NCBI GenBank assembly: GCA_048886685.1
Contig: JBHLKM010000002.1
Coordinates: forward strand, 295,532 to 359,531
Direction: 5' to 3'
From: Candidatus Hodarchaeota archaeon
GTDB taxonomy: Archaea; Asgardarchaeota; Lokiarchaeia; Sigyniarchaeales; SOKP01
Length of the DNA: 64,000 nt
Position numbers and translations under genes: made by a program. Shown one piece after another: positions 17,507 through 40,043 of this stretch (position 1 is its first letter; every line of letters starts with the position of its first letter). The notes under the pieces were generated by a model that saw only the letters and a program-made list of their open reading frames with translations, was not told the origin of the DNA and made no database searches.

Positions 17507-17562
17507 TTAGAGCTCAAAAATTCAAATTTATCAAATATATTTTATTTTAGGATTATTAAAAA

Positions 17563-20500: not shown

Positions 20501-20673
20501 ACACTACTAATATAAAGAAAGCACGAGTAATTAAAGCTGTTTGTAAAGGTTGTGGAGCATGTGTTGTAGAATGTCCAGTTAATGCTATTGATCAAAATCA
20601 CTTTAGCAAGATTCAAATTAATAATATGATTGATTTATTACCAGGAATAGAATTACCGCATTATATTATTTAA
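17563..20673 (+). CDS. hdrA: Large HdrA-family flavo-Fe-S protein with two FAD modules (all-Cys paralogue)
   Basis: GGGIAG, QLDKIFPTLDCSLC, QCVGSR...YCSAICC, FICRCGTNI, ASCTPRTHE, second GGGITG, terminal 2x[4Fe-4S]. Confidence 0.92.
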   Translation: MLKLQSSVLVIGGGIAGIQTSLDLTRLGFKVYLVEIKPTIGGTMAQLDKIFPTLDCSLCILAPKMVDVYRNPNIELFSYSYIKKIRGSAGNYTVTVIKKPRYIKEEICKGCGDCVNVCPIKGIPSEFDTHLKTREGIYIPFPSSVPPVYLIDDRNCLFLNYQICGICAKVCKANAIDFLQKSEEITLNVGAIVIATGYSQEMPENYNTFAGYSPNVLSSMQFERILSANGPTGGQIIKLDDRKPPHSIAFIQCVGSRDVHHPACKKYCSAICCMNSAKEAIVVKEHDLNIECYIINTEIRAKGKNFYEFIERCKSEYNVKYINGRVSYIKEDLDNGKLKLYYEDIDKGTVGTFKVDMAILASALSPTPSYYKLLRQFNVGCNDLGYIREKDIILLEKKNVFVTGYSRKPNDIQMAVAEGSACAAKISEKLCSVRFQNIKKISYPSEIPLTPEDDPRVGIFICRCGTNIGGIVNVPEVVNYVSKLPYVVHVEENMYSCSSDSQERIKELIIKYNLNKFIVASCTPRTHEQLFKNTLREAGLNPFLFELVNIRNQDSWVHQNEPEKATKKACDLIRMYLGKVINSKPLETINVKVEKSSLIIGGGITGITAAHNLANQGFEVYLVEKDSLLGGVALEFIDLYYIPITKNEILQKINDLRNNSDVHIILNSDIVDIQGYVGNYQIKVKNIQDNSEDKTFKVGTIIVATGTRQIRTNRWLDLSERYPKRVLTQKELTAIKDADIPRFKDATIILCVDQRRNEFNEGDNIKTYCSNICCGVALKNIEKLLNNNPNAHIHVLYREFQFSDLNAEHLWRSLRQKVTYEKYRSIDNIKIIEENGRFHIKYKNIGARTDIEYNTDLIILATPKVPADGTEQLAKLLKVPTNKDGFFLEADAKLRPIDFATEGIFLCGGAHWPKWIGESITQAYGAAGRATILMVKGEIEAECITAGINEEKCIGCGRCAEICIYNAIELYDTIKQMGLYTTNIKKARVIKAVCKGCGACVVECPVNAIDQNHFSKIQINNMIDLLPGIELPHYII

Positions 20674-20690
20674 ATAAAGGTGAGTACAGC

Positions 20691-21155
20691 TTGTTAAAAA
20701 CTAAAAAAAAAATAGTTAAGGAATTTGAGCCAACTATTTTAGTTTTTTGTTGTAACTGGTGTAGTTATGCTGGAGCGGATTTAGCAGGAGTGTCAAGATT
20801 TCAATACCCCCCAAACATTAGGATTGTCAGAATTATGTGTTCAAGCAGAGTTGAGCCTATATTTATTTTAAGAGCTTTTGACAATGGAATAGATGGTGTA
20901 TTAATTATTGGATGTCATAAGGGTGATTGTCATTATATACATGGATTTGAATATACTCTAATCAGAATGGAACATTTAAAGAATTTATTAAAAATAATTG
21001 GAATTGAGGAAGGTAGATTTAGGTTACACTCAATTTCAGCAAGTGAGGGGAAACAATTTTCAGAATTAATTATAGAATTTACAGATAAAATTAAAGAGTT
21101 AGGGGAATTAAAAATCCCCAAAAAATTTGGACTAATGGAATTTAAATGTAATTAA
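20691..21155 (+). CDS. mvhD: MvhD-family [2Fe-2S] subunit
   Basis: FCCNWCSYAGADLAG, RIMCSSRV, GCHKGDCHY. Confidence 0.95.
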   Translation: MLKTKKKIVKEFEPTILVFCCNWCSYAGADLAGVSRFQYPPNIRIVRIMCSSRVEPIFILRAFDNGIDGVLIIGCHKGDCHYIHGFEYTLIRMEHLKNLLKIIGIEEGRFRLHSISASEGKQFSELIIEFTDKIKELGELKIPKKFGLMEFKCN

Positions 21156-21163
21156 ATAAAAAT

Positions 21164-22291
21164 TTGAGGATATATATGACAGAATTAAACTCAAAAAAAT
21201 ATTTCGATATTAACATAAAAACTTTTAAAGACCTTGATAATGAAGTTATTAAAACTGATAAATGTTGTAGTTGTGGTGCATGTATAGCTTATTGTGAAAG
21301 TCAGAATTTTAATGTTATTGAGATGGCGGGATATATTCCGAGATTTAAATCAGAAAAAAATGCCTATAATTGTACTGAATGTGGTATCTGCTATTATATA
21401 TGTCCTCAAACATTATCATTATTAAAAGAATTAGAAGATATTCACAGAATAGAAGATAAACTTGGGCATATTATTAAAATTCTCGCAGCTAAAACATCTA
21501 ACGCTACGCTAAAGAAAGTTGGGCAAGATGGGGGTATAGTTTCAACAATATTAACCTATTTATTTGATAAACATAAAATTGATGCCGCCATTGTTTCCGA
21601 ATTTGATAAAAACCTTAAACCAATTCCAAAAATTATATTTGATAAAGAAGATCTGTTGAATTCGGCAGGTACACGTTATTCCATATCTTCTCAAATTATT
21701 CCTTTAAAGGATTTATATCATATTTCAGAAGAAATTCTTATGAAAAAAAGAATCTTTGATATCGATCAACTCCGTATGGGATTCGTAGGAACACCATGTC
21801 AATGTAGAGCAATTAGTAAAATGCAATTTTTACATGTTAAACCAGCTCATATTATAAAATATGTAATAAGTCTTTTTTGTTTTGAAAATTTTGATTATAA
21901 TAAATTATATGATATTTTAAGAAAAGAAACAAATTTAGACCCCAATAATATTAAAAAAGCATGGATAAAGAAGAATTTTTTTATTGCTACTAAGAACAAT
22001 GAGGAATTCGAAGTAAATATTAAAATCCTAAATCCTGCTGTAAGAAAACATTGCCTTGAATGTAATGAATTTACTGGTCGATTTTCAGATATTAGCATTG
22101 GATCATCTGGTGCACCAAAAGAATATTCAATGATAATAACTAGAACAGAAGAGGGGCAGAAAATCATTAAATCCATGCTTTCTTATGGATTAATTGAACA
22201 ATTTATTGCACCAGCTAGCCAAAATGGGGAATGGATAAATAAAAAACTTGAATGGTATAAAAAATTAATTTCTCTTAAGGCAAATAATTAA
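21164..22291 (+). CDS. FrhB/FdhB-family F420-interacting subunit
   Basis: CCSCGACIAYC, CTECGICYYICP, GQDGGIVS, GTPCQ, LFC, CLECNEFTGRFSDISIG. Confidence 0.9.
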   Translation: MRIYMTELNSKKYFDINIKTFKDLDNEVIKTDKCCSCGACIAYCESQNFNVIEMAGYIPRFKSEKNAYNCTECGICYYICPQTLSLLKELEDIHRIEDKLGHIIKILAAKTSNATLKKVGQDGGIVSTILTYLFDKHKIDAAIVSEFDKNLKPIPKIIFDKEDLLNSAGTRYSISSQIIPLKDLYHISEEILMKKRIFDIDQLRMGFVGTPCQCRAISKMQFLHVKPAHIIKYVISLFCFENFDYNKLYDILRKETNLDPNNIKKAWIKKNFFIATKNNEEFEVNIKILNPAVRKHCLECNEFTGRFSDISIGSSGAPKEYSMIITRTEEGQKIIKSMLSYGLIEQFIAPASQNGEWINKKLEWYKKLISLKANN

Positions 22292-22357: not shown

Positions 22358-22428
22358 TCTGAAAACCCACACTATGGGTTAGTTCCCCCTCAACTATAGT
22401 TTTTTTGAAAGGATCATCCTTTTTCAGA
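22358..22428 (-). promoter_or_regulatory. SECIS-like element (eukaryote-type AUGA...AA...GA hairpin) overlapping the hdrA stop codon
   Basis: Minus strand: UCUGAAAA AGG AUGA UCCUUUC AAAAA AAC UAUA GUU GAGGGG GA ACU AACCCA UAGUG UGGG UUUUCAGA. AUGA/GA core, upper stem with one bulge, unpaired As, apical mini-helix, closing 8-bp helix. Confidence 0.7.
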
Positions 22429-24465
22429 TAATATTTTATGAGGAGCTAGTGCTTCAATCTTTTTCCAAATAAGTTCAATAGATTCGATATACTGTTCCTT
22501 ATATTCAAGTTCAGTACTACAGATTCCTTTCATTTCTTCAATAATTTGTTTGTCTCTATAATATTTGAGATCAATTGCACGAGCTGGACATGAAGATACA
22601 CAAACCCCGCAACCTTTACACTTTAAATCATCTACTTCCGCAATATCTTCTCCATTGACTGTGATTGCTTTATTAACACAGAGCTTCTCACATCTATGAC
22701 AACCCATGCACAGATTTTCATCTATTTCAGCAATAATTAATTCTTGAATTATTGAATCTTTAGAAATTAATGTTGAAACCTTACTTGCAGCGGCTAACGC
22801 TGTTGATACTGAATAAGGGATATTTTTGGGTCCGGCGGCACATCCACATATATAAATGCCCATATTATTTGTCTCTTGAGGTTTTAAGCATCCATGAACT
22901 TCTGTCAAAAATCCGTTCATATCTTTACTTAAACCCAAAATCTCAATTATTTCAGCTGTGCCTTTAGAAGGGACCATGCCTGTTGATAAAACAACTAAAT
23001 CGGTATTCATTATAATGAAATCATTTGTTAAAGTTGAAGCAGCAGTAATCCTAATCTTTTTTGTTGCAGGATCTTCTCGTATATCTCCCACTTTTCCCCG
23101 AATCATCATTATGCCTGCTTCTCTCGCTTTTCTATAATATTCCTCATTTCCTTTATCCCATGCCCGTATATCTATATAAAAAATAGTAATCTCCATATTA
23201 GGATATTCTTGTTTTAACAATTGAGCATTTTTAAGAGCAACACTGCAGCATACTACTGAACAATATGGATTACCTTTTAAAGTTCTTGAACCAACACATT
23301 GAATCATAGCTACTGTTTTAGGGATCTTTCCATCAGAAATCCTATATATATGACCTCCTGTAGGTCCAACTGGACTTAACATTCGTTCTAACTCTATTTG
23401 TGTAATTACATTGGGATAAATCCCATATTTATATTCATTATTTTTCATAATTGGGTATTCATCCCATCCTGTGGCAATAATTACTGCTCCAACTTTTAAT
23501 GTAATATCTTTTGGGGTTTGTTCAAATTCAATAGCTTCAGCGGGGCAAATTCTTTGACAATTTTTACATTCTATTCATACACTCCTATCAATTAGAGCTA
23601 CTTTTGGTACTGATTGGGGAAAAGGTATGTAAATTGCTTTTCGTTCGCCAATACCTCTGTTAAATTCGTTAGGTACTTCTATTGGTCATTTCGTTGTACA
23701 TAATTCACAACCAGTACACTTGTTTTCATTAATATATCGAGGTTTTTTATGTATTTTAACATTATAATTTCCAGGTATGCCGCTGAATTTACTAATTTCG
23801 CTATAGGTAAATAATGTTATATTTGGATGTTTTGAGACACTTACCATAATAGGTGCTAGAACTCATATCGCACAATCATCAGTGGGATAAATTCGATCTA
23901 ATTTTGCCATTTTTCCACCAATAGTGGCTTCTTTTTCGACTAAATACACATTTATTCCTTGATTTGCTAAATCTAATGCAGCATTCATCCCTGCAATACC
24001 AGCGCCGATAATTAATACAGATTTTTCTACTGATACTCTTTTATTAGGTATGATTTCTAATTCTCTAGCACGATTTATCCCTGCTTGCACTAACCTTATA
24101 GCTTTTTCAGTAATTCTTTTCTTATTTCCCGAGTGAGCAAATGAGCATTGTTCGCGAAGATTAACCATTTGGAAATAATATGGGTTTAAACCCGCTTCAG
24201 CTAGCACTGCTCGATAAGTAGATTCATGAATTTTAGGTGTACAAGCTGCCACAACAACACGATTTAAGTCTAAATCTAAAATATCGTTTTTGATAATATT
24301 TTGTCCTGGATTGCTGCAAGTAAAATTGTTCACTCTAGCAACAATAATACCAGGGAGTGCCTCAACATAATCTCTAATAAGCTCGCAATCGATACTGTTA
24401 CTAATATTAACTCCTCATCTACAGATATAGAATCCAATTCTAACATTGGTCTGTTTTTCAGACAT
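22414..24465 (-). CDS. hdrA: Selenocysteine-containing HdrA, 683 aa, four in-frame UGA (codons 17, 201, 260, 297)
   Basis: Joins ORFs 23863..24333 and 22414..23448 in one frame from ATG 24465. UGA at 24415-17 (YICR-U-GVNI), 23863-65 (DDCAI-U-VLAP), 23686-88 ([12 protein letters not shown]) and 23575-77 ([12 protein letters not shown]). All align to Cys of the neighbouring HdrA; no other stops or frameshifts. Confidence 0.93.
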
Positions 24466-24905
24466 TTAATCTACCTTTTTCAACTATCACCTAATATTTT
24501 TCATGATAAAATTTCAAAATTCTGAGTAAAGAAAAACAAAAATTTGCTAAAAGGTAATTATAATTACTTCTGATGATATTTTCCGATTAAATAATGAGCT
24601 AAGAGAAATTTAAAAAATTTGATAAGACAAATTTTGATTATTTTGATAAATTTATTTATCAATCCTTTTATTAAAATTATGGATCTGATCCTTATCTGAT
24701 CTTTTTCGTATCAATATATTATCACTTTTCAAATGTATGATGGAATTCTTAATTATTGGTCTTAATGATCCTTGATCATAATAAGGATGAAAAGGATCAC
24801 ATTTATATATTATGACAATTATTTTTATCATAGAGATCATTTATTTTATTAAAATAGTCAAAAGAATTTTTAAAATGATTAATCTTAAATTGGTGATTTT
24901 TAATA

Positions 24906-26063
24906 ATGAAAATAAAAAACTTTCAGGATTTAATTAAAGAGGTTCATGAGCCTGGCATCTGTCAACAATGTGGGGGCTGCATAAGTTTTTGTAATTCAAT
25001 TGAAAATGAAGTAATTGGTTTTAAAGATCTAAATTCGCCTCCTGAATATTTAAATAAGGAAAAATGTCTTGAATGTGGAATTTGCTATTTAATTTGTCCA
25101 CAAACGCATACTCTAGACGAAGATCTTAATATTACATACAAATTTTCAGGCTTTTCGTCAATGCCATTAGGTTTTCTTGAAAATGTTTACTCTTGTCAGG
25201 CTGTGGATAATGATTTTCTAAAATATGGAACAGACGGTGGGGTTGTAAACTCAATAATAAATTATTTAATAGAAAAAAGAATAATTGATGGCGCAATAGT
25301 TGCAAAAACAAAATCACCATTCTCTAGAGAAGCTATAATAGCTAAAAGTAAAGAAGATTTAATCAAAGCTTCTGGTGTCAAGTTAGATATATCAGCACAA
25401 TTAGATAGCGTCCAGAAATTTCATACATATACAAATTCATTACCTAAATTAAGGAGTGTCAAATTCAAGAAATTAGCACTGGTAGGGACCCCATGTCAAA
25501 TTTATACAATTAGATGTATGCAAAATTTAGGCATCATTCCATCAGAGAATATAGAAATTTGTTTAGGATTATTTTGTTTCGAGAATTTCTTCTTTGACGA
25601 AATAAAAGTTAGGCAATTCGAAGAAGAATTTAATATTAAATTTAAAGATATTGAAAAAATAAACATTAAGGCAGATCTAATTATTAAATTAAAAGATGAA
25701 GTAGCTCGTCGCAAAATAATCCATATACCATTTGAAAGATTAACTGAATACATCCGTCCAGCTTGCACCGTGTGTAATGATTTCACGAATATTTATGCCG
25801 ATGTTTCTTTTGGGGGATTGGGTTCCCCGGATAAATTTACGACTGTAATTATTCGTACTAAAAAAGGAAAAGATATAATTAATATGGCGATAAAAGCAGA
25901 TGTAATTAAACGTTTAAAATTAAATGTAATTGACAAAAAAGAAATGAAAGAAAAAATTACACAATTCTCTCAATTAAAATTAATACGAGCAGAAAAAAAT
26001 ATGAGAGATATTTTGATAACAAGGAGATCCTCATTATCAACCTCAGCAATTAATGAAGAATAA
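24906..26063 (+). CDS. FrhB/FdhB-family F420-interacting subunit
   Basis: CQQCGGCISFC, CLECGICYLICP, GTDGGVV, GTPCQ, GLFC, CTVCNDFTNIYADVSFG. Confidence 0.9.
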   Translation: MKIKNFQDLIKEVHEPGICQQCGGCISFCNSIENEVIGFKDLNSPPEYLNKEKCLECGICYLICPQTHTLDEDLNITYKFSGFSSMPLGFLENVYSCQAVDNDFLKYGTDGGVVNSIINYLIEKRIIDGAIVAKTKSPFSREAIIAKSKEDLIKASGVKLDISAQLDSVQKFHTYTNSLPKLRSVKFKKLALVGTPCQIYTIRCMQNLGIIPSENIEICLGLFCFENFFFDEIKVRQFEEEFNIKFKDIEKINIKADLIIKLKDEVARRKIIHIPFERLTEYIRPACTVCNDFTNIYADVSFGGLGSPDKFTTVIIRTKKGKDIINMAIKADVIKRLKLNVIDKKEMKEKITQFSQLKLIRAEKNMRDILITRRSSLSTSAINEE

Positions 26064-26132: not shown

Positions 26133-28682
26133 ATGGATATATACACAATATTATCTCATCCATTCAGAAGAAAAATCTTATTTCTTCTTGAAAAGGAGGG
26201 CTATATTCCCTATACAGATTTAATGGAAAAACTTGGTTTAGAAACAACAGGACAACTAAATTTTCATCTGAAGAAGATCGGTTCATTAATAAATAAAGAC
26301 AAAAAATCATATTTTCTTACTGAAGATGGTAAACGCGTACTTAAAATTCTCAATCTCAACAAAAGAATTTTATCAGGAGAAAATATTGATGAGTATTTAG
26401 ACTCTAGGGGAAGCGAGATAAGCAGGATTGGAGTAATCATTTGTTATTGCAATACAGAAATTTCAAAGGTAATAAATATAACTGCCCTTGAAAATTATAT
26501 AAATAAGTTAAGAAAGGTAGTTTCGGTAAAGGTCTTTGAAAACTTATGTCAGCAAAAAAATTTTAATAGAATTGGTAAATGGGTTAAAGATAATTTTTTG
26601 AATAAAATTGTGATAGCTGCATGTTCTCCAAGAACACATCAACATCTTTTTGAACGAATTTTTGAGAAAACTATTGATCGAGCTAATTTAGAAATAGCTA
26701 ATATTAGGGAACAATGTTGTTGGGTCCATCAATCTAAAATATATCAAACAGATCTCTCATTTTTATTAGAAAAAACTAAATTATTAATTGAAGCAGCTGT
26801 TGAACGGGTAAGTCTTCAAAAAAAAGTAAAAATTAAGAGAGTTGAAGTAGAAAAGAGTTGTGCAATTTTAGGTGGGGGAATTGCTGGTATAACACTTGCC
26901 TTAAATTTAGCTCGAGCTGGAATTGAAGTATATCTCATTGAAAAATCACCTACCTTGGGAGGTAAGGTAGCCAGATGGCACCGAATCCATAATATGGGTG
27001 ATTGTTCAATATGTCTCATTTCAGAATTGATAGGTGAATTAGTAAATGAGAAAAAAATAAAGATTTATACTAATACTGAAATTGAAAATGTATCAGGTGA
27101 AGTTGGAAATTTCACAATTAAATTGATTAAAAAACCTCGATATATTAATGTGAAAAAATGTACTGGATGTAAACAATGTTTAGAAGTTTGTAGTATAGAA
27201 AAGACAAATCAATATGAATTTGGTTTAACTAATCGAAAAATCATATATATCCCTTTTATTCATTCGTATCCCTATGTTCCTTTGATTGATGAAGAAGATA
27301 TAAAAAATTGTCTTAATTGTAGAATTTGTGAACGTGTATGTGAAAATAAAGCAATAGATTTGACTCAAAAAGAAGAAAAAATCGAAATCAAAGTTGGAAC
27401 TAAAGTAATTGCGATTGGTTCTGACTTTTACGAGGATTTAGAGGATTATCATTATAATTCCAAAAAAAATATAATAACATCAATGGAATTTGAACGAATA
27501 TTATCTTCTGATGGCATCACTGAAGGAAAGCTTTTAACGTTATCAGATAAAAAACCAATAGAATCAATTTCTATCATTCAAGAGGTTGGTCCATCAAAAT
27601 ATCTTGCTGATTACTCAGAAATCTTAGCACAAAAATATATTGAGGATATTAAAATAAAAAATCCTGATTGCGAAGTTAATGTCTTTTATGATTTAAGTAA
27701 ATTAAAAGATAAGGATGAGATTTTATTAAGATCATCTAATCCAAGATTTATATATGCAGACAAAATTACAATTGAGACCAATAAAGATCTAAATTACATT
27801 GTTGCTGATAATATTAAGTTTCCAAGTGATTTAATTGTATTAAATCTAAAATTTATCCCTAATAAAGATTTAAAAAACCTTCGAAAATATATGGATTTTA
27901 CATTAGATGATAATGGATTTATGAGTGAGGAAACATTAGCATCTGGAATTTATGGTGTTGGGACGATTTTTGGTCCATTAAATTATAATTCTACAATTTC
28001 AACAGCTAACAATACTGCATTAAAAATTATTTCATTGCTTTCTAAAGAATATTTAATTGCAGAGTTTACAGGGATAGAAATTGATGAAAATAAATGTGGT
28101 TTGTGTGGTTTGTGTTCTAAAATTTGTCCTTATAATGCTATTACAACAGAATCAGACAAAATAAGTATAGACAAATTTAAGTGTAAAGGCTGTGGTACAT
28201 GCGCTAGTGTGTGTCCAACAAATGCAATAGATTTAAACTTAGACTCTTCTGAGAAGATTTTAAAGACAATTGAAATTTTTTCGAAATTCAGAGCACAACC
28301 AAAAATTCTTGCCTTCTGTTGCGCATCTTGCGGATATGCTGCAGCTGATGATGCTGGTCTTAAGAAGGTCTCCTATAATCCAAATACTTTTATCGTTCGG
28401 GTTCCATGTACAGGACGTATTGATACAAATTTTATTATTAAATCATTTGAGCTCGGATTCGATGGAGTAATGATAATTGGCTGTAGACAAGATGCATGCA
28501 GATATATTGACGGAATAGAAAAAGTAAAGAAAAAAATTATGTTATTAAAGAATATCATACTGCCGAAATATAAAGATCGAATAGTCCTTGAACATTTAAA
28601 TGCTGTAGAGGGTACCAAATTTGCTGAAATCTCAAATAAATTATATAACAAATTAGTCGAGGAGATTAAATTTGAAACCTAG
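26133..28682 (+). CDS. Fusion: ArsR-like winged helix + degenerate HdrA + MvhD
   Basis: N-terminal LSHPFRRKILFLL...TGQLNFHLKKI...YFLTEDG; HdrA motifs IICYC, AACSPRTH, NIREQC, GGGIAG, four ferredoxin motifs; C-terminal AFCCASCGYAAAD, RVPCTGR, GCRQDACRY. Confidence 0.9.
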   Translation: MDIYTILSHPFRRKILFLLEKEGYIPYTDLMEKLGLETTGQLNFHLKKIGSLINKDKKSYFLTEDGKRVLKILNLNKRILSGENIDEYLDSRGSEISRIGVIICYCNTEISKVINITALENYINKLRKVVSVKVFENLCQQKNFNRIGKWVKDNFLNKIVIAACSPRTHQHLFERIFEKTIDRANLEIANIREQCCWVHQSKIYQTDLSFLLEKTKLLIEAAVERVSLQKKVKIKRVEVEKSCAILGGGIAGITLALNLARAGIEVYLIEKSPTLGGKVARWHRIHNMGDCSICLISELIGELVNEKKIKIYTNTEIENVSGEVGNFTIKLIKKPRYINVKKCTGCKQCLEVCSIEKTNQYEFGLTNRKIIYIPFIHSYPYVPLIDEEDIKNCLNCRICERVCENKAIDLTQKEEKIEIKVGTKVIAIGSDFYEDLEDYHYNSKKNIITSMEFERILSSDGITEGKLLTLSDKKPIESISIIQEVGPSKYLADYSEILAQKYIEDIKIKNPDCEVNVFYDLSKLKDKDEILLRSSNPRFIYADKITIETNKDLNYIVADNIKFPSDLIVLNLKFIPNKDLKNLRKYMDFTLDDNGFMSEETLASGIYGVGTIFGPLNYNSTISTANNTALKIISLLSKEYLIAEFTGIEIDENKCGLCGLCSKICPYNAITTESDKISIDKFKCKGCGTCASVCPTNAIDLNLDSSEKILKTIEIFSKFRAQPKILAFCCASCGYAAADDAGLKKVSYNPNTFIVRVPCTGRIDTNFIIKSFELGFDGVMIIGCRQDACRYIDGIEKVKKKIMLLKNIILPKYKDRIVLEHLNAVEGTKFAEISNKLYNKLVEEIKFET

Positions 28683-29430
28683 ATTTATAATAATTTCTCT
28701 AACTTCGTGTAGTGGTTGCATCTCAACTATTATGTCTTTAGATATTTTTCCACAATTCCTTAAGAGAACTATAATAACTTATTTTCCCTTTATTTCAGAT
28801 TTAAAAGACATTGAAGAATGTGATATTGCTTTAGTAGAAGGTTGTATTTCTGAAGAATCTCAAATTATATTCCTTCGAGAAGTTAGAAGATATGCCAAAA
28901 AAGTCTATGCCTTAGGAACATGTTCTAGTTTTGGAGGGATTTTAAGTCTTTCAAATTCAAAAATAGTAGGACCAATCTCTAATTATATTGAGATTGAGGG
29001 TATTATTCCTGGTTGCCCACCTCCTTCTAAACTACTTGGAAACAGTCTAATCAGATTGGTTGAAAACAAAGATATAATATTATCTGAAAAAAATATGTGT
29101 GCCAATTGCCCATCAAGGGGAAACATGGAAATAAATTCTCATATAAATATCTCTAAGATTAATCCAGATCCAGAAGAGATTGATCTTAATAAGGAAAATT
29201 CTGAATGTTTTTTAAAGAAAGGTATTTTATGTTTAGGACCAGTAACCCGTGATGGATGTGAATTTAATTGTATAAAAATGGGGCTTCCGTGTGAGGGATG
29301 TATAGGGCCGGTATCAAAAGATTTCACTTCAAACATTATTAATTTTTTGAGTTTGATAGAATTATCTCAGGAGCTAAAAGAATATACAGGGATTTTTTAT
29401 CGATTTTCAAAACCAAAATTGAAAGGGTGA
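28672..29430 (+). CDS. [NiFe]-hydrogenase small subunit (MvhG-like, group 3)
   Basis: LTSCSGC, VEG, LGTC, IPGCPP, CANCP, CLGPVTRDGC...PCEGCIGP; overlaps the upstream stop. Confidence 0.9.
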   Translation: MKPRFIIISLTSCSGCISTIMSLDIFPQFLKRTIITYFPFISDLKDIEECDIALVEGCISEESQIIFLREVRRYAKKVYALGTCSSFGGILSLSNSKIVGPISNYIEIEGIIPGCPPPSKLLGNSLIRLVENKDIILSEKNMCANCPSRGNMEINSHINISKINPDPEEIDLNKENSECFLKKGILCLGPVTRDGCEFNCIKMGLPCEGCIGPVSKDFTSNIINFLSLIELSQELKEYTGIFYRFSKPKLKG

Positions 29431-30740
29431 AAACTTTGTTAAAAGTTATTGATGTTTGTAGACGTGTTGAAGGTCATGGAGATGTAAAAATTTTAATTCA
29501 AAATGATGAAATTTCATTGGTGAATTTTGAATTTGGAATATATCGAGAATTTGAAAAAATTTTAATCGGAAAAAGACTACTAGATCTGCCAAAAATAGTA
29601 TCTCGAATATGTGGATTATGTTATACCTCTCAAACAATCGCAAGTTGTAAAGCAATAGAAGATATTTATAATATCAATGTATTAGAACAAACTATTCTCT
29701 TGAGACGCCTTTTAATGAGTGCTGAATTAATTAAATCCCACTCTATGAATTTTTTTTTCCAAACTTTACCCGATCTTTTAGCAATTTTTGGTCTTAGCAA
29801 AATAACATTTTCTCCTTACGAGATAATTAATTATAATCCTCAATTAACAAATAATTTCTATGAATTAATCAGAATTGGAAATGAACTAAATAACTTATAT
29901 GGAGGTAGATCTGTCCATTTGATTTCGCCTATTCCAGGAGGCATTATTTATTCTCCTTCTCGAAAAAAAAATATCTTAGCTCGAAAATGTTTTCAAAAAG
30001 CTTTAGTCAGTTTAGAATGGATTATAGAAAAATTTATTGAATTATTTTCTAATCAAGCTCCTCCAAAAGAATATAACCTTCCAAACTTTATTTCTCTTGG
30101 TTTAACAAACCATGGAAATTATGATCGATATTTAGGTACCTTAAGAATTAAAGGAAACAATAAAAACTTAATAGAATTTGAAAAACACAATTACTCTTCT
30201 TATTTTGGAAAAGAGCTTAATTTACGTGGAATTGATTTTTATTTCGAAAATAAAAAAAATGTAATAGTAGGTCCTTTTTCTCGTTATAATATTGTCGAAA
30301 ATTATGGATTTGATGAATTTAATACTTATATTGAGTATTTCAATAAATCATGGAAAAACAATATACTACTTACAAATTTTATTAAATTACTAGAAATGTA
30401 TATCGAATCTTATCAAGGATTACAAATTTTAGATGATTCATCTTTAACTAAAAGAGAAAAACTTCCTTCTCTGAATTCAGTAAAAAATTTGGATGGAATA
30501 GGCGTCATTGAGGCTCCCAGAGGAGTTTTAATCCATCATTATCACCTTAATAAAAGTAATTATGTTGATCGAGTAAATCTTTTCGTTGCTACTGAGTTTA
30601 ATATTTCACTTATTAACGAGATGATTACAGAATATGCCCAAGAATTATTTGAAAGAACAGGAGATATAAATTTAGTTAAAAAGAAAATTCAGATGATTAT
30701 TAGGACATTTGACCCTTGTATCTCATGTGCAACTCACTAA
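29427..30740 (+). CDS. [NiFe]-hydrogenase large subunit (group 3-like), no C-terminal extension
   Basis: RVEGHG, L1 RICGLC, EAPRG, L2 DPCISCATH followed directly by stop; GTGA overlap. Confidence 0.92.
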   Translation: MKTLLKVIDVCRRVEGHGDVKILIQNDEISLVNFEFGIYREFEKILIGKRLLDLPKIVSRICGLCYTSQTIASCKAIEDIYNINVLEQTILLRRLLMSAELIKSHSMNFFFQTLPDLLAIFGLSKITFSPYEIINYNPQLTNNFYELIRIGNELNNLYGGRSVHLISPIPGGIIYSPSRKKNILARKCFQKALVSLEWIIEKFIELFSNQAPPKEYNLPNFISLGLTNHGNYDRYLGTLRIKGNNKNLIEFEKHNYSSYFGKELNLRGIDFYFENKKNVIVGPFSRYNIVENYGFDEFNTYIEYFNKSWKNNILLTNFIKLLEMYIESYQGLQILDDSSLTKREKLPSLNSVKNLDGIGVIEAPRGVLIHHYHLNKSNYVDRVNLFVATEFNISLINEMITEYAQELFERTGDINLVKKKIQMIIRTFDPCISCATH

Positions 30741-32707: not shown

Positions 32708-33322
32708 TTAATTAAAAGAATGTAGAAATTTTGACTTTTGAATGAAAATTGCGTTAGATTTTACGTTAATTTCTTTTAATTGTTTCATTATTTCAACAAA
32801 AGTGTTCTCCTTACCGAAATGTACAAATGTTAAATTTTTACTATCTCGATCCTTTATTACGCTCAAAATTTTCTCTACAATTGATTTAGCTCGTATTTGT
32901 TGATTTAAATAATGGTTTAGATCCATTAATTCTTTTGAATAATAATCGATCAAATAACTAAGCTCTTGAGCACCTGAAGAATTTTTATCTTTTAATGAAT
33001 TATATGTAGTATTTAATTCATTGTACTTATTCTGAATCTCACTAATTTGACTTGCATAATGTCCTTTTACGTAATATGGTAATTCTATTGTAAAATAGGG
33101 AATTTCAAATTTCTTTAATACGTTTGCTAAATGAGTTCTATTAAATTCTCGTAAGTTCATTTTTCCTAAATCGATTGTAGCGAAATGTACGGGTATATGC
33201 TTAATTTTTCCAATCAATTCTTCAATATTCTCCTCTTTAAGTTTAACATCCAAATCTCTAATTGAATATACTGAAAAATTTTTATCTACTAAAGTTTCGA
33301 ACATTATATTTTTCATGATCAA
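32708..33322 (-). CDS. Uncharacterised protein, paralogue of 14704..15333
   Basis: FATIDL...IPYFTIELP...IVEKIL...FVHFG...EIMKQLKE matches FITVDI...IEYYLLDMP...IVKKIL...LIHFA...EIIKQLKE. Confidence 0.78.
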   Translation of the reverse strand: MIMKNIMFETLVDKNFSVYSIRDLDVKLKEENIEELIGKIKHIPVHFATIDLGKMNLREFNRTHLANVLKKFEIPYFTIELPYYVKGHYASQISEIQNKYNELNTTYNSLKDKNSSGAQELSYLIDYYSKELMDLNHYLNQQIRAKSIVEKILSVIKDRDSKNLTFVHFGKENTFVEIMKQLKEINVKSNAIFIQKSKFLHSFN

Positions 33323-33844: not shown

Positions 33845-33866
33845 TTTATGAATATATATTCATAAA
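33845..33866. promoter_or_regulatory. Perfect 22-bp palindrome, core TGAAT-N4-ATTCA
   Basis: TTTATGAATATATATTCATAAA upstream of the NifX-family gene. Confidence 0.75.
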
Positions 33867-33941
33867 TTATAAATATAAGGAGCTATTTTAATTTAATAAT
33901 TCTTTATAAATGAATAATTATGAATAAAAATAAAGAGAAGT

Positions 33942-34331
33942 GTGAGAAAGATGAATAGGATTATAGGAATTCCTGCTGAAGGAAGAGAATTATCAGATAA
34001 TATATCACCTCACTTTGGGCATTGTCCCTACTTTGTGGGTGTTGAACTTATAGATAACAATAGTTTTAGGAAAATCTTCACCTTGGTTAATGAAGGACAT
34101 GTTGGGTGTATGGAACCTGTCATGAATTTAAAACAAAGAAATGTAACAGATATGATTCTGACAGGAATTGGAATGCGACCATTTTTAGGTTTTCAGCAAG
34201 TTCAAATAAATTTATTCCAAGGAGTAAACGGAAGCATCGAAATAAATTTGAAAATGCTAATCGATGGGCAATTAAAGGTATTAAATGGCGCTAGTTGTGG
34301 GAATCACTCTGAAAATGCTCACACTCATTAA
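33942..34331 (+). CDS. NifB/NifX-family (Nitro_FeMo-Co) cluster-binding protein
   Basis: ISPHFGHCPYF, GIGMRP; C-terminal CGNHSENAHTH. Confidence 0.85.
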   Translation: MRKMNRIIGIPAEGRELSDNISPHFGHCPYFVGVELIDNNSFRKIFTLVNEGHVGCMEPVMNLKQRNVTDMILTGIGMRPFLGFQQVQINLFQGVNGSIEINLKMLIDGQLKVLNGASCGNHSENAHTH

Positions 34332-34365
34332 AAAAATTGTTAGAACTAAAAGAGGATGAAGTTAT

Positions 34366-34875
34366 ATGCCAAGTTTTAAAGAAACATATGAAGCTATTAA
34401 GATAGATTGGAATGCTGGGGAGAAGAACTTTAATATCGAATGTGAAATGTTGCCAAAAGGTATGCAAGTTAAATGTACGATGGGTAATCCCGCAGGGGAT
34501 CCTTTTGAATTAATTATAGATGCCCCTGGTGGATTAGATGGATCAAATAAGGGACCATCACCTTTATTAGTGATTTTGTCTTCTATTGGTGCTTGTATCA
34601 TTGCCGTTACAAGATTTTGGGCAAAAATAATGGATATTAAACTAGAGGAAATGAAAGTTTTTTCACGTGGTCATATTAATTTAGGAGCTATCTTCGGAAT
34701 TGACGATTCAAAACTAGCAGGGTATGATAAACTTGAACCCGTAATAAGAATTAAAGCCAATGCCCCCGAAGAGAAAATTAATGAATTGATGGATAAAGTT
34801 TTCACTCATTGTCCTGTGATTACTAATTTTGGTGGAGCTTCCCCAATTACTCCTAAAGTACAAATAAGAAAATAA
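34366..34875 (+). CDS. OsmC-family protein
   Basis: IIDAPGGLDGSNKGPSP...IGAC...HCPV. Confidence 0.85.
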   Translation: MPSFKETYEAIKIDWNAGEKNFNIECEMLPKGMQVKCTMGNPAGDPFELIIDAPGGLDGSNKGPSPLLVILSSIGACIIAVTRFWAKIMDIKLEEMKVFSRGHINLGAIFGIDDSKLAGYDKLEPVIRIKANAPEEKINELMDKVFTHCPVITNFGGASPITPKVQIRK

Positions 34876-34960
34876 TTTCTTTCAAACTTTTTTTTTTATA
34901 TTCTTATCAAAAAATTAAAGCCAAATATTATCTCTAAAATTAAAATCCAAAAGAAAAACA

Positions 34961-35148
34961 TGTAAATGGTATCAATTTTGTCTTATTAAATGCTTTGTTG
35001 ACCATGGCAAACTTGATCGAAAATGGGGTGAAAATTATTGTTTAGTGGGAAATAAAAATTGCATTAGATATCAAATGGAAGAAGGGGTCAACCCCATCCC
35101 GATAATCTGCTACCTAATGGTGAATTCAAGCGAGATCTTCATTACTAA
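34961..35148 (+). pseudogene. Frameshifted remnant of a small four-Cys protein
   Basis: CKWYQFC...GKLDRKWGENYC...NCIRYQMEE in one frame, continuing HPDNLLPNGE in another; no start codon. Family recalled from memory only. Confidence 0.45.
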
Positions 35149-35172
35149 CGAAATTATGTAAAAATGTAAATA

Positions 35173-35577
35173 TTAATGATGATGATGGTGCTTATATTCA
35201 TCATCTGCTTCAGTATGAATTTTTTCGACACCATAGCCTTTACCCCCTCCTGGAGAACAAAGACTTTCTCCTCCCTCTAAAGTACCTTCTATTATTTTTT
35301 TAATAACTTCATCAATTTCTCCAGCAACTCCCATAATAACTTCAATCCCATAATCATTAAAGAAACCTACAGCTCTGGGTCCCATACCTCCTGAAATCAT
35401 ATATTTTGCGCCATGTGTATTTACAAATTTAGGTATACTTCCTACAGTATGTCCAGGATTAGGAAAAACTTCTTTTTCTATTACCTCATTATTTTCAATC
35501 GTAATGAAAGTAAACTCTGGAGCTCTACCAAAATGCCCTGAAACTTTTCCTGAATCTGTACTAATACAAATTTTCAT
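35173..35577 (-). CDS. NifB/NifX-family protein with His-rich tail
   Basis: VSGHFGRAPEF, GGMGPRA, C-terminal KHHHHH. Confidence 0.88.
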   Translation of the reverse strand: MKICISTDSGKVSGHFGRAPEFTFITIENNEVIEKEVFPNPGHTVGSIPKFVNTHGAKYMISGGMGPRAVGFFNDYGIEVIMGVAGEIDEVIKKIIEGTLEGGESLCSPGGGKGYGVEKIHTEADDEYKHHHHH

Positions 35578-35631
35578 TTTTAATCTTCTCCTTTTTTATT
35601 CCAACTCTTCAACGTTTATATTTAAATTTAA

Positions 35632-35645
35632 AGAATGATTATTCA
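35632..35645. promoter_or_regulatory. TGAAT-N4-ATTCA site (1 mismatch) between NifX-like and DUF134 genes
   Basis: AGAATGATTATTCA. Confidence 0.55.
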
Positions 35646-35749
35646 AAAATATATCTATCTCTAGGATATGGCTCTTAATAATATATAAATATAGCTCTTA
35701 TCAATTTATATTATAAACATTAAGATTATAATTTGGTTGGTATTCTACC

Positions 35750-36166
35750 ATGGGAAGAAGAAGACATCGAAGATGGGTTACTCAAACACCTAATAATCTT
35801 TATTTTTCAAGTGAACCACCAACCGAAGATTCCATAACTTTAACTATTGCTGAATTTGAAGCTATGCGTCTTAAACATTATATTGGACTAAATCAGAGAG
35901 TAGCTGCAGAAAAAATGGGAATTAGTCAACCCACATTTTCTAGGATTCTTGAAAGCGCTCATCGTAAAAATACAATTGCCTTACTTGAAGGAAAATCGAT
36001 TAAAGTGTATGGTGGTAGTTTTGATATTAAACCAAAATTCGTAGGATACGAGTGTGTAGATTGTAAACATGAATGGGAAGATGAAGATGCCTCAAAAGAC
36101 AGAAAAGTTAATTGTGTTAAATGTAATTCAAAAAATGTTTACTTTCTTGTTAGAGAACTAATTTAA
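35750..36166 (+). CDS. DUF134 (UPF0251) HTH DNA-binding protein with C-terminal zinc ribbon
   Basis: EFEAMRLKHYIGLNQRVAAEKMGISQPTFSRIL; CVDCKHEW...CVKCNS. Confidence 0.9.
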   Translation: MGRRRHRRWVTQTPNNLYFSSEPPTEDSITLTIAEFEAMRLKHYIGLNQRVAAEKMGISQPTFSRILESAHRKNTIALLEGKSIKVYGGSFDIKPKFVGYECVDCKHEWEDEDASKDRKVNCVKCNSKNVYFLVRELI

Positions 36167-37098
36167 ACTAAGTTAGAATGCCATAATTTTCTTTTTAAAT
36201 TTGAATAAATTTCTTTAATTGCCAGACTTGCTATTGAATCTGGTGCATATTGTACTACAGGTTTGGCAAAAGACATAGCTTTTGGGATTGATAAATCAAA
36301 GGGGATTTTTCCTAAAATTTCATAATTAGTGTCCCTCATGTGCTTACTAAAAGTTTCTTGAAAGGGACTCTTTAAATCTGATTTATTTATTAAGATCCCA
36401 AATGGAAGGTTAAATTGACGAATAACTTCGATTACTCTCAACAAATCATGTAATCCAGAAGGTGTAGGCTCACATATAGTAATAACATAATCTAAATTCG
36501 AAAGGGTTGCAATTACGGGACATCCAATTCCCGGAGGACCATCTATAAATATTAAATTACTTTCATTATATTCATTCAAATTTTTTACTTCTTCTTTAGA
36601 GTCTGAAACTAGTTTTCCAGAGGTCGTGCTTCCTAACTGGGTTTTGCCATATATTAATGGAAATCCCATTTTGCTCGTATAAGATATAATTTCACCACTT
36701 TTTACAGCAGTTATTTTAAAAGCATGCATAGGACATAAAACTTTACAAGATCCACACCCCTCACATTTCAAAAAATCAATTTTAGGTATTGAATTCTGAC
36801 TATCCCATCGTAAAGCATTAAATTCACAGAAATTTTTGTCAATACATTCCTTGCAATTATTACATAGATCTTCTAAAAATTCTGATTTTAGTGTAGTGAA
36901 AGTATCTTTTTGATCTATTTTTGAATCTTCAGCAGGAGGAAGAATTATTGCTAAGTTTGGAGCATCAACATCACAATCTAATACAATAACTTTCATAATT
37001 GAATCTTTTTTGGCGAGACTTGCTAAAGAAGCTGTAATTGAAGTTTTACCCACGCCTCCTTTCCCAGAAACAACCCCAACTATTTTTCTTTCCATCAA
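36163..37098 (-). CDS. MinD-superfamily P-loop ATPase with inserted ferredoxin
   Basis: SGKGGVGKT, DCDVDAPNL, CEGCGSCKVLCP, SGKLV, DGPPGIGCPV, EPTPSGLHDL. Confidence 0.92.
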   Translation of the reverse strand: MMERKIVGVVSGKGGVGKTSITASLASLAKKDSIMKVIVLDCDVDAPNLAIILPPAEDSKIDQKDTFTTLKSEFLEDLCNNCKECIDKNFCEFNALRWDSQNSIPKIDFLKCEGCGSCKVLCPMHAFKITAVKSGEIISYTSKMGFPLIYGKTQLGSTTSGKLVSDSKEEVKNLNEYNESNLIFIDGPPGIGCPVIATLSNLDYVITICEPTPSGLHDLLRVIEVIRQFNLPFGILINKSDLKSPFQETFSKHMRDTNYEILGKIPFDLSIPKAMSFAKPVVQYAPDSIASLAIKEIYSNLKRKLWHSNLV

Positions 37099-37120
37099 TT
37101 TAAATCCTTTTTATCAATTA

Positions 37121-38041
37121 TTAATTTAAACTTAGCCACTTTTTTAAATTTTCAAAAATTTTTGTAAATGCTATGAATCCTGCTCCATTATTATCATAAC
37201 CACTATCAATTTCCATAATTGGTGTTCCTTGACAATAAGAATTCACAATATCTGCGTCCAAGGGGATATCACCTAAAATTATAATATTTTCTTTTCGTAA
37301 TTCTTCTAAAAATTGATTTCTAAACCCCAATAATGATGATCTATTTACTATTACCTTACACTCTTTCCCCAATATATTTATCAATTCCATTATTCTCGTT
37401 AAATCTAATTTACCAAATTTTGTAGGTTCTGTAATAGGAATAATTACATCCGCCACATTAATTAACAGTTCTACATCGCAATGTGCTCCTGGAGCAGTAT
37501 CTAAAATGATAACATCGAATTTATTTGGTTCATTTTTTATGAGATTCTCAAGATTTTCCAGAAGTGCTTCTACAATTCCAGCTGATCGAGCTTCTGTAGG
37601 TTTTAATTCTCCAACGAATAGGGTAAGTCCATGAATTTCAGTGGAGTATATCCAACCAAGTGTTTTAAAGTCTGCTTCAATCGCTTTTTCTGGGCATATT
37701 TTATAACATAATCTGCATCCGGAACAAAGTGATGACATTAAGATTGGAATCGAATCATCAATATATAACAAAGCATGATTTGCACAATTTTTAGCACATA
37801 TTCCACATCGAGAACATTTATCTTCATCAATTTTAGGCATGAAAAAAGGGACTTCTCTTTTATTTTCAAGTTTACCATTTAATAGAAGATAAGAATTAGG
37901 ATTTTCTACGTCCCCATCTATGAGAAGTACGTTATATCCTTCATTTTTAAACATTAATGCAATATTAACAGCACATAATGTTTTTCCTGTACCTCCTTTG
38001 CCCCCAGTTATACAGATTATCTTAGGCTTAATCTCAGTCAT
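37121..38041 (-). CDS. MinD-superfamily P-loop ATPase with inserted ferredoxin (second paralogue)
   Basis: GGKGGTGKT, DGDVENPN, CSRCGICAKNC, CSGCRLCYKICP, DTAPGAHC, TEPTKFG. Confidence 0.92.
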   Translation of the reverse strand: MTEIKPKIICITGGKGGTGKTLCAVNIALMFKNEGYNVLLIDGDVENPNSYLLLNGKLENKREVPFFMPKIDEDKCSRCGICAKNCANHALLYIDDSIPILMSSLCSGCRLCYKICPEKAIEADFKTLGWIYSTEIHGLTLFVGELKPTEARSAGIVEALLENLENLIKNEPNKFDVIILDTAPGAHCDVELLINVADVIIPITEPTKFGKLDLTRIMELINILGKECKVIVNRSSLLGFRNQFLEELRKENIIILGDIPLDADIVNSYCQGTPIMEIDSGYDNNGAGFIAFTKIFENLKKWLSLN

Positions 38042-38081
38042 AAAACTTTCAAATTTAAATCATATTATCTTAAGAATTAGC

Positions 38082-38525
38082 TTATCTTTCTCGATATCCG
38101 CCGCCCATCCTACGACCTCCTCCCATGCCATGGTGAGGTGCTACATTTGCTGAAGTTAATTCCCGTAACTTATCTTCTATGAACAACTTCACGACCTCAT
38201 TTATAGTCATCTTTCTATCTGGAGCATGAAGGACCTTTATATTTAAGGCATTAAGTCCGTTGGCTGCATTTGGCCCTAAGAATCCAGCAATTACTATTTC
38301 AGCATTATTATTGCCAACTATTTGAGTTGCTTGCACACCAGCACCCCCCATAGTACTAGCAGCATGATTTGGAACAGTTTTAACCGCCCTTATTTCTTTA
38401 TCCTCTATTTCAACAAATGTAAAGCTAGCACATCTTCCAAAACGAGGACTCATATCGTCATTCAAACCTCCTTTTCCTATTGAAGGAATTGCTATAACAA
38501 CCATTAACATTTCGACCTTTTTCAT
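38082..38525 (-). CDS. NifB/NifX-family protein
   Basis: SPRFGRCASF, GGAGVQA, GPNA, ANVAPHHGMGGG. Confidence 0.9.
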   Translation of the reverse strand: MKKVEMLMVVIAIPSIGKGGLNDDMSPRFGRCASFTFVEIEDKEIRAVKTVPNHAASTMGGAGVQATQIVGNNNAEIVIAGFLGPNAANGLNALNIKVLHAPDRKMTINEVVKLFIEDKLRELTSANVAPHHGMGGGRRMGGGYRER

Positions 38526-38551
38526 CTATTTTAATTTTAGTAACTTTTTTA

Positions 38552-38575
38552 AATTATGAATAAATATTCATAATT
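38552..38575. promoter_or_regulatory. TGAAT-N4-ATTCA palindrome with extended arms
   Basis: AATTATGAATAAATATTCATAATT between divergent NifX-like and Mrp operons. Confidence 0.75.
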
Positions 38576-38675
38576 ATATAACAATCGATGTTTTATAAAT
38601 TTAACCTATTTTGATTCAATTATTAATAATTGATATAATTAAACTAATTAAACTACCTATATAAAGAAGAAGAGG

Positions 38676-39563: not shown

Positions 39564-39568
39564 AAAGA

Positions 39569-40036: not shown

Positions 40037-40043
40037 GAATAAT

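Follow-up and report, generated by a model that had tools for sequence, protein, structure and literature searches.

Organization of the operon

We analyzed a 64,000-nucleotide (nt) stretch of DNA from Candidatus Hodarchaeota archaeon (NCBI GenBank assembly GCA_048886685.1, contig JBHLKM010000002.1, positions 295,532 to 359,531; hereafter, the window), which carries on its plus strand four closely packed open reading frames (ORFs; 24906–26063, 26133–28682, 28672–29430 and 29427–30740). The second of these (26133..28682, +) encodes a protein of 849 amino acids (aa) in which an N-terminal ArsR-type winged helix-turn-helix (wHTH) is joined to an altered HdrA body and an MvhD domain (wHTH-HdrA*-MvhD; hereafter, the fusion). 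It is followed by the genes for an MvhG/VhuG-type [NiFe] small subunit of 252 aa (28672..29430, +), which overlaps the fusion gene by 11 nt, and for a [NiFe] large subunit of group 3 type of 437 aa (29427..30740, +), which overlaps the small-subunit gene by 4 nt. The first gene of the operon encodes an FrhB/FpoF-like flavin/Fe-S subunit (24906..26063, +) with FrhB_FdhB_N/C domains and an N-terminal 2×[4Fe-4S] motif; frhB occupies this place in this clade only and was found upstream in about 22 of 65 loci. A canonical HdrA containing selenocysteine (Sec) is encoded divergently (Sec-HdrA; 22414..24465, −); four UGA codons in its gene are read through, its HA4 cluster motif is intact, and it shares with the frhB/fusion operon the intergenic region that bears the operator-like palindromes described below. 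This divergent arrangement was found only in the near clade.

The original prediction, made from the letters of this region, had proposed that an Mvh-Hdr complex was repurposed here as a one-component regulator that wires H2 oxidation to DNA binding. Every sequence feature on which it drew is present, including the two gene overlaps and the absence of adjacent hdrB and hdrC genes, which holds for the operon; neither gene was found in the operon in any locus examined.

The N-terminal winged helix

Searches against Pfam and NCBIfam identified a DUF7347 (E 8e-10)/HTH_24 winged helix at aa 2–71 of the fusion, and the domain as a whole spans aa 1–81 (26133..26375, +), with a lower-confidence linker to approximately aa 97. 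A profile of 28 N-termini matched the ArsR-type repressor 1y0u of A. fulgidus (E 3e-6). The AlphaFold2 (AF2) model of the domain, with a predicted local distance difference test (pLDDT) value of 87 (about 95 in the core, with confidence dropping beyond aa 90), consists of three helices, a beta wing and a long last helix. The best Foldseek matches of this model were all wHTH regulators (YodB, HxlR, NadR, NolR-DNA, CadC and ArsR), with template modelling (TM) scores of 0.6–0.67 and E values of 4e-3 or weaker. These results agree with the ArsR-like DNA-binding fold that had been assigned to the N-terminus, DNA binding itself being a prediction.

When two copies of the domain were modelled together, a two-fold symmetric pairing through the helices at aa 2–13 and 68–89 was predicted, with an interaction score (ipSAE) of 0.46, compared with 0.00 for the best of three controls. 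For comparison, 20 of 30 proteins whose structures were solved as same-chain pairs attained this mark, as did 1 of 23 proteins solved as single chains. At least 86% of contacts were common to the runs, the pLDDT of the partner was at least 85, and the recognition helices were left free, although the score may reflect only a resemblance to ArsR dimers of known structure. The recognition helix, TGQLNFHLKK, is identical in nearly all of the 65 loci.

Redox sites of the HdrA and MvhD regions

The remainder of the fusion comprises an HdrA2-type body (aa 98–841; NCBIfam NF040770, 578.7 bits, below the cut-off of 1100) that includes a FlpD/MvhD domain (aa 725–841, E 2e-32). Solved HdrA chains matched the fusion at E values of 1e-105 to 1e-107, and solved MvhD chains at 1e-23. 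The most conspicuous change concerns the [4Fe-4S] cluster HA4. In an alignment to HdrA of M. thermolithotrophicus (5odc_A), C386, C399, C403 and C404 correspond to E484, L491, S495 and E496 of the fusion (27582..27620, +), as expected from the earlier observation that the HdrA cluster motif is gone; the flavin lysine K501, which comes next, is kept. The cluster site is also lost in the aligned 849-aa orthologues of the Loki clade, a few of which retain the first cysteine. The stretch ahead of the DCxxC pair, which had been noticed as altered, reads RWHRIHNMGDCSIC, compared with LDKTFPTxDCSMC.

The other redox sites are maintained. Cysteines of five cluster sites are present in the fusion besides the lost HA4, and comprise those of the N-terminal cluster (C104/C106/C139/C164), the inserted ferredoxin domain (C343–C353 and C393–C403) and the C-terminal ferredoxin domain (C655–C665 and C684–C694). 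The cysteine ligands of the MvhD domain (aa 722–841; 28296..28655, +) are kept as well. The flavin adenine dinucleotide (FAD) domain carries GGGIAG at aa 247–252, and K501 and E454, which align to K409 and E356 of M. thermolithotrophicus HdrA, are invariant. GGGIAG, the ferredoxin motifs and MvhD, all described at the outset as retained, were also kept in the 849-aa orthologues. The conserved cysteine pair C291/C294 (DCSIC; 27003..27014, +) corresponds in position to the Cys202/Cys205 pair of Mvh-Hdr, which is approached by the [2Fe-2S] cluster of MvhD (PMC12350162, PMC13580544).

K409 and E356 have been tied to the bifurcating flavin, and the thioredoxin-reductase domain of HdrA holds just one cluster (PMC12054007). 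In the structures of Mvh-Hdr, the high-potential path runs from FAD through HA4 to HdrC and HdrB, while HA3 shuttles the low-potential electron to HA5 and HA6 (PMC12350162, PMC13580544); class II benzoyl-CoA reductase has the same layout of electron paths (bioRxiv 10.64898/2026.04.10.717634). Because HA4 is the high-potential branch toward HdrC and HdrB, the part that was lost is the exit to HdrBC and not the hydrogen input. With the FAD motif, the K501/E454 pair, the five cluster sites, the cysteine pair, MvhD and the cysteines of the hydrogenase all kept, the complex still looks redox-competent from its residues.

The hydrogenase subunits

The small subunit is VhuG/MvhG-like and has 12 cysteines in the pattern expected for three [4Fe-4S] clusters. 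The large subunit contains RVEGHG and keeps the Ni-ligand cysteines in both CxxC pairs (C62/C65 and C431/C434). Its best matches all belong to group 3 (HydL of A. mobile, 7t2r_D, E 1e-50; MvhA, 5odc_F, E 3e-45; HoxH, 5xf9_D, E 3e-41), and among curated families it scored 164 bits against ShyA and 153 bits against VhuA, all below the cut-offs; the assignment to group 3 comes from this ranking of scores, and a place within group 3c is tentative.

Two traits of the large subunit recall H2-sensing hydrogenases. In the L1 motif RICGLCYTSQ (29604..29633, +), Gln69 stands in place of the histidine of other [NiFe] hydrogenases, and all 59 of 59 related large subunits have RxCGxCxxxQ at this site; replacement of this histidine with glutamine has been described as a signature of H2-sensor hydrogenases (PMC5665086). 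The second trait, already part of the original prediction, is the absence of a cleavable C-terminal tail: DPCISCATH is directly followed by the stop codon (30711..30740, +), and 58 of the 59 relatives likewise end at the final histidine, whereas 7t2r_D and MvhA (5odc_F) continue for about 25 residues beyond it. A bacterial H2 sensor also lacks the extension (PMC7294309). The genome also encodes a HycI-type endopeptidase.

A palindrome at the promoter of the operon

From k-mer enrichment and inspection of upstream regions, we obtained the palindromic consensus TGAYAA-N6-TTRTCA, which occurs twice in the intergenic region ahead of the operon. The distal operator-like copy, O1 (TGATAA-N6-TTATCA; 24644..24661), lies 262 nt ahead of the frhB ATG, 179 nt ahead of the divergent Sec-hdrA start and about 170 base pairs (bp) upstream of the proximal copy; a site at about −230 to −260 is kept in most related loci. 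An auxiliary half-site, TGATAAGA (24620..24627, +), is located upstream of O1, and the corresponding arrangement TTGAYAAGA-N14–16-palindrome also appears at further loci of the Loki type and at L094, which belongs to a distant clade. The proximal copy, O2 (TGACAA-N6-TTATCA; 24813..24830), begins 3 nt past the TATA box ATTTATATA (24801..24809, +) of the frhB/wHTH-hdrA/mvhG/mvhA operon and is followed by a conserved AGATCAT. This TATA box was found in 19 of 21 frhB-first upstream regions at a constant spacing to O2, and O2 should cover the expected transcription start.

The palindrome is nearly exclusive to this operon. The best site within 300 bp upstream had no mismatch in 35 of the 65 loci and one mismatch in 21, and at least one site with one mismatch or fewer was present within 450 bp in 61 of 65 loci, mostly as two sites; the expectation is about 0.015 per locus, based on 144 such sites genome-wide in 4.4 Mb. 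This 4.4-Mb genome contains only three exact copies, two of which are O1 and O2. Ten other genomes that we searched contain 2–7 exact copies each, compared with 0–4 for a reversed control pattern, and in 8 of these 10 (9 of 11 counting this genome) one or two exact copies are placed just upstream of the operon. The eight include the clades f19 and f21, which have a higher guanine-plus-cytosine (GC) content and whose fusions are only 40–59% identical. In genome G377, the exact copy sits past mvhA, ahead of the gene that follows it (Mpt_N), and a copy with one mismatch lies upstream of the fusion; in G003, all upstream copies contain a single mismatch and none is exact. The domain and the palindrome co-occur in clades f19, f21 and f31 (40–59% identity, higher GC). 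Judging from these loci, no DNA-binding domain other than the winged helix on HdrA accompanies the palindrome.

Several other candidates for a regulatory signal were discarded. A second target that had been proposed, at 15334–16096, contains only one site with one mismatch, and the region 15334–16255 likewise has just this one site and no array. When the other exact copies in distant genomes were considered as a possible regulon, five of six inspected were inside ORFs, the exception of interest being the copy before the Mpt_N gene in G377. An RNA hairpin was rejected as an explanation because the half-sites do not co-vary, the commonest pair being TGACAA with TTATCA. The GATC-rich intergenic repeats are conserved solely as GATCAT elements on either side of the TATA box and O2. 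A different motif, TGAAT-N4-ATTCA, has no copy in this promoter, and its overall count, like its total at one mismatch, corresponds to chance; its seven exact copies, distinct from the TGAYAA palindrome, are clustered at 33849–44546 and absent from the rest of the window.

Distribution of the fusion and order of the changes

The fusion is not unique to this assembly. We found 849-aa orthologues in more than 120 clusters at 90% identity (67–89% identical to the fusion), which share the features described above, and most of those among the matches listed carry DUF7347. The fusion and the hydrogenase are kept together in 71 species-level loci of Promethearchaeota (Asgard) and also in Bathyarchaeia, and the fusion gene is followed by the small- and large-subunit genes in every locus with enough DNA. 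When 398 genomes of the phylum were searched, at least nine families had full-length matches that include the winged helix; within the genus of the window, 38 of 51 genomes have the fusion. Distant fusions at 37–41% identity, one of them in Bathyarchaeia, again precede small- and large-subunit genes.

Comparison among clades suggests the order in which the sensor-like traits appeared. In clades f19 and f31 (39–45% identity), all four HA4 cysteines and the L1 histidine are kept and the large subunit has a tail of 7–10 aa; the same holds in Bathyarchaeia, with a tail of 7 aa. In clade f21, HA4 is lost, with the L1 histidine and a 7-aa tail kept; in clades f4 and f6, HA4 is lost and L1 has glutamine, with a tail of 6–11 aa; and in clade f1, to which this genome belongs, HA4 and the tail are both lost and L1 has glutamine. 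The changes thus accumulate stepwise toward the f1 clade, with HA4 lost before the histidine was replaced and the tail lost last. Since the distant clades that keep HA4, the histidine and the tail also carry the winged helix (and most of them also the palindrome), the fusion is older than all three changes. Whether orthologues keep the full set of cysteines, which together with action as ordinary enzymes had been named as grounds against the prediction, depends on the clade: the 849-aa Loki-clade proteins do not, having lost HA4, whereas the distant fusions of f19, f31 and Bathyarchaeia do.

In Bathyarchaeia, the large subunit has RVEGAS, compared with RxEGH, and HoxE-, HoxF- and HoxU-like genes together with a fused small-subunit/ferredoxin gene lie directly upstream of the module (L080:1828–6629); this Hox-like gene set has no large-subunit gene of its own.

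A candidate self-regulating enzyme and its alternatives

We regard the domains, the losses, their conservation, the palindrome and its genomic exclusivity as established by this analysis, and from them we infer recognition of the palindrome by the winged helix, repression on binding and a response to H2 or redox state. Our preferred reading, in which we place about even confidence, is that the module, a cytoplasmic Mvh-type [NiFe] hydrogenase with an HdrA-MvhD flavin/Fe-S subunit, is a redox- or H2-responsive trigger enzyme that regulates its own genes, with the winged helix binding the palindrome as a repressor. In such a mechanism, the winged helices of an HdrA dimer would bind the two TGAYAA-N6-TTRTCA sites in the promoter region of the module itself, and binding at O2, next to the TATA box, would block initiation. 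Occupancy would follow the redox state of the flavin/Fe-S chain, which could be loaded by the hydrogenase from H2 or by reduced ferredoxin through the inserted ferredoxin domain. In the Mvh-Hdr complex of methanogens, the N-terminal domain of HdrA belongs to an arm that swings during turnover (PMC12350162, PMC13580544); a winged helix placed on this domain might couple the redox state to the geometry of the DNA-reading heads. With HA4 lost, the Loki-clade complex can no longer run classical heterodisulfide-linked bifurcation, and with glutamine in L1 and no tail it resembles H2-sensor hydrogenases at the active site. The Lokiarchaeia form has probably drifted toward a sensor-like state, while a pure sensor is unlikely.

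A bolder version of this reading, which we regard as conceivable but somewhat doubtful, is that the complex is a direct H2-to-transcription device. Electrons from H2 would reach the flavin by way of the [NiFe] site, MvhG and MvhD, and the redox-driven swing of the arm would move the winged helices off or on the operator without a kinase. Such a device would be widespread in Asgard archaea, the archaeal lineage nearest to eukaryotes, and would here have been caught partway from a bifurcating enzyme to a sensor. No kinase gene was found in the operon in any locus, although no genome-wide search for kinases was made.

Several observations weigh against the preferred reading. The Bathyarchaeia locus and locus L082 of P0124 have the fusion, but their upstream regions have no matching palindrome (the two Bathyarchaeia loci that were fetched are identical, so that their comparison adds no information), and no site was found upstream of a distant Asgard locus (L089) or of an order-level relative (L087). 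With this query, the fusion was not found in 13 of the 51 genomes of the same genus, several of which are at least 97% complete. Neither the recognition helix nor the palindrome varies enough for their co-variation to be compared; parsimony is the ground on which the palindrome is assigned to the winged helix, and the binding is a prediction. The absence of a tail is common among [NiFe] hydrogenases (PMC7294309), and the glutamine in L1 was reported to be unnecessary for sensing in a bacterial sensor (PMC5665086). Without HA4, crossed-potential turnover of the flavin has no evident route, which affects the catalytic half of the model. Moreover, the winged helix of BamF, a component of the HdrA-type class II benzoyl-CoA reductase, docks a protein and not DNA (bioRxiv 10.64898/2026.04.10.717634).

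The last point leads to an alternative that we consider unlikely, namely that the module is an ordinary metabolic hydrogenase (e.g. one with which a syntrophic fermenter evolves or takes up H2 in connection with ferredoxin) in which FrhB or another partner replaces HdrBC, the winged helix serves structure or docking, as on BamI in the BamF case, and another regulator reads the palindrome. Conservation of all redox sites except HA4 is consistent with this possibility, as are the recruitment of frhB to the operon in this clade, the Mpt_N dehydrogenase-like gene after mvhA in distant clades and the treatment of Asgard Mvh-Hdr in the literature as an H2-evolving or bifurcating enzyme (bioRxiv 10.1101/726976; PMC11291895). 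It does not account for the ArsR recognition-helix signature and its near identity among loci, for the predicted classical dimer with free recognition helices, or for a palindrome whose symmetry matches that of the dimer, which hardly occurs outside the operon and which tracks the fusion across clades with different flanks. Nor was any regulator gene other than the fusion conserved at the locus. Flanking genes vary among clades: this genome has Sec-HdrA, many loci encode a 205-aa protein confined to Asgard archaea, and f19 and f31 have a CitMHS transporter. We considered the divergent 205-aa gene as a possible regulator and rejected it, as its product has no Pfam or NCBIfam match and no likeness to a helix-turn-helix.

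A further alternative, in line with the original prediction, is a dedicated H2 sensor that performs no metabolic catalysis, in which the hydrogenase would only signal H2 to the flavin and the winged helix would relay this signal to DNA. The proposal of a regulator built from Mvh-Hdr is supported in part, by the fold, the fusion, the operator-like palindrome and the two sensor traits, and the idea of a sensor gains from the loss of HA4 as the route to HdrBC (PMC12350162, PMC13580544), from the glutamine (59/59) and missing tail (58/59) known from bacterial H2 sensors (PMC5665086, PMC7294309), and from the way in which these losses build up toward this clade. The presence of a canonical Vhu-type hydrogenase with hdrC and hdrB elsewhere in the genome, and of a canonical Sec-HdrA across the operator region, also speaks for it. 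The part of the proposal that makes the complex a mere regulator is not supported in the form in which it was put, and we consider a dedicated sensor rather improbable. The domain and the palindrome are older than the losses, being present in clades with all four HA4 cysteines, the histidine and the tail, and the lost cluster is the exit to HdrBC, off the H2 input path (PMC12350162, PMC13580544). The aligned orthologues conserve HA5/HA6 as an exit to ferredoxin, the Lys/Glu pair of the flavin and the remaining cofactor ligands that we checked, frhB has joined the operon, and the hydrogenase is of group 3 by sequence and not of group 2b. Furthermore, the palindrome is essentially confined to the module's own promoter and the divergent gene, so that a sensor would govern little but itself without obvious use, and self-regulation of a working enzyme fits better than a global sensor. 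An equally improbable alternative is a constitutive autorepressor, in which the winged helix caps dosage or couples expression to assembly without any response to H2 or redox state. An operator-like site overlapping the core promoter would suit it, negative autoregulation alone would explain a private operator, and the domain sequence shows no ligand or redox switch; however, a stand-alone repressor would then suffice, whereas fusion to a hydrogenase-wired flavin/Fe-S protein has long been kept, and the point of attachment is the mobile arm of HdrA (PMC12350162, PMC13580544).

Comparison with known systems

An enzyme and a DNA-binding domain in one chain are not without precedent. Bacterial PutA is a flavoenzyme and repressor that regulates its own genes; its operators comprise several sites in a divergent intergenic region, and flavin reduction frees the repressor. 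In archaea, RbkR is a riboflavin kinase and regulator in which an enzyme body is combined with a DNA-binding domain (PMC5397151). Both are tested precedents for enzymes that control their own genes from operators in their own promoters. The fusion resembles both in this architecture and in having (putative) operators on its own promoter, but the enzyme families are unrelated, the input here would be H2 or ferredoxin through a multi-subunit metalloenzyme, and DNA binding and its modulation are predicted.

The module is closest to MvhAGD-HdrABC, the electron-bifurcating complex of methanogens (PDB 5ODC and 8RVU; PMC12350162, PMC13580544), with which it shares the HdrA body with FAD, the equivalents of K409 and E356, the N-terminal, inserted and C-terminal cluster sites, the DCxxC pair and, as the next and overlapping genes, those of MvhG/MvhA type. 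It differs in the loss of HA4, in an operon without hdrB and hdrC, in the glutamine in L1 and in the missing tail of the large subunit. A C-terminal MvhD is also found in HdrA2 or type Ia HdrA-MvhD fusions (PMC6019823, PMC12054007), although the module scores under the NCBIfam equivalog cut-offs. The N-terminal ArsR-type winged helix distinguishes the fusion from both and is unmentioned in a survey of 1,152 HdrA sequences (PMC12054007); in the literature that we searched, we found no description of a winged helix on HdrA, of DUF7347 or of peculiarities of Asgard group 3c hydrogenases, and neither the glutamine in L1 nor the operator is mentioned. BamF similarly combines a winged helix-turn-helix with an MvhD-type adaptor in an HdrA-type complex (bioRxiv 10.64898/2026.04.10.717634), but its winged helix is inside the MvhD-like protein and docks BamI, whereas the module carries its winged helix N-terminally on HdrA, with a recognition helix of ArsR type and a conserved palindrome to match.

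The group 2b sensors HoxBC and HupUV (PMC5665086, PMC7294309) share with the module the absence of the C-terminal extension, the glutamine in place of the L1 histidine and a link, proposed here, from H2 to gene expression. However, the large subunit of the module belongs to group 3 and not to group 2, and the proposed signal would travel via MvhD and a flavoprotein to a DNA-binding domain of the same complex, in place of a histidine kinase (HoxJ or HupT) and a response regulator. Because the sensor-like traits arose stepwise within Asgard archaea, their likeness to those of HoxBC and HupUV is convergent.

These findings may bear on the biology of Asgard archaea, which are thought to live by hydrogen exchange with partners, H2 syntrophy being central to models of the origin of eukaryotes. 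If the preferred reading is true, a hydrogenase complex that acts directly on DNA would offer a concrete answer to how Asgard archaea sense hydrogen or redox state, with a putative operator defined to the single base. Among the genes that metabolic reconstructions of Asgard archaea count as 'Mvh-Hdr' is a form unable to feed HdrBC. Models in which this enzyme is taken to perform heterodisulfide-linked bifurcation or confurcation need checking. The stepwise losses across clades (HA4, His to Gln, and the tail) provide a natural experiment in which a catalytic hydrogenase gains sensor-like traits. The conservation of the fusion together with the hydrogenase, the role of HA4 as an exit, the glutamine in L1, the palindrome and the distant clades with the full set of features are new in this analysis.

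Other hydrogenase, HdrA and neighbouring genes

The hdrC and hdrB genes of this genome are found on another contig beside a second, canonical Vhu-type hydrogenase (G000:C4:99464–103530, locus L078), which has a small subunit of 434 aa and the L1 motif RICGICPIPH. The large subunit at L078 ends ahead of the C-terminal CxxC motif and is followed by a 290-bp gap, which could hold a VhuU-type Sec peptide, and then by hdrC and hdrB. This hydrogenase is likely to be the true partner of the Sec-HdrA of the window. Within the window, an HdrD-like gene lies 10 kb upstream of the fusion operon, in a different operon. The separate operon at 16256–22291 (+) contains genes for an HdrD-like CCG protein, for an HdrA of 1036 aa that has two FAD domains, for an MvhD that stands alone and for a further FrhB; together with the fusion and Sec-HdrA, three different forms of HdrA thus lie side by side in the window.

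The Asgard-only protein of about 205 aa is encoded divergently from wHTH-hdrA in many loci (L027:5038–5655, L047:4835–5494), where it shares the operator region. An atlas search returned only Asgard hypothetical proteins and a weak TraB/GumN lead (0.82), and a paralogue with 31% identity is encoded in the window 2 kb downstream of mvhA (32708–33322, −). In distant Asgard clades, a protein of 560–600 aa that combines Mpt_N (the N-terminal domain of methylene-tetrahydromethanopterin (H4MPT) dehydrogenase) with a Rossmann fold is encoded directly after mvhA (L093:6846–8654; L094:10040–11737), and may be an electron acceptor or a member of the regulon. A protein with the same Mpt_N domain is encoded in the window, 11 kb from the module (13019–14704, −).

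A second fusion of a winged helix with an enzyme, 660 aa in length, is encoded outside the window (G000:C3:192240–194222, +; locus L005:2241–4223), with DUF7347/HTH_45 at aa 14–93 and an NRDD (anaerobic ribonucleotide-reductase-like) region at aa 444–637. Fusions of this kind may be a recurring theme in this genome.

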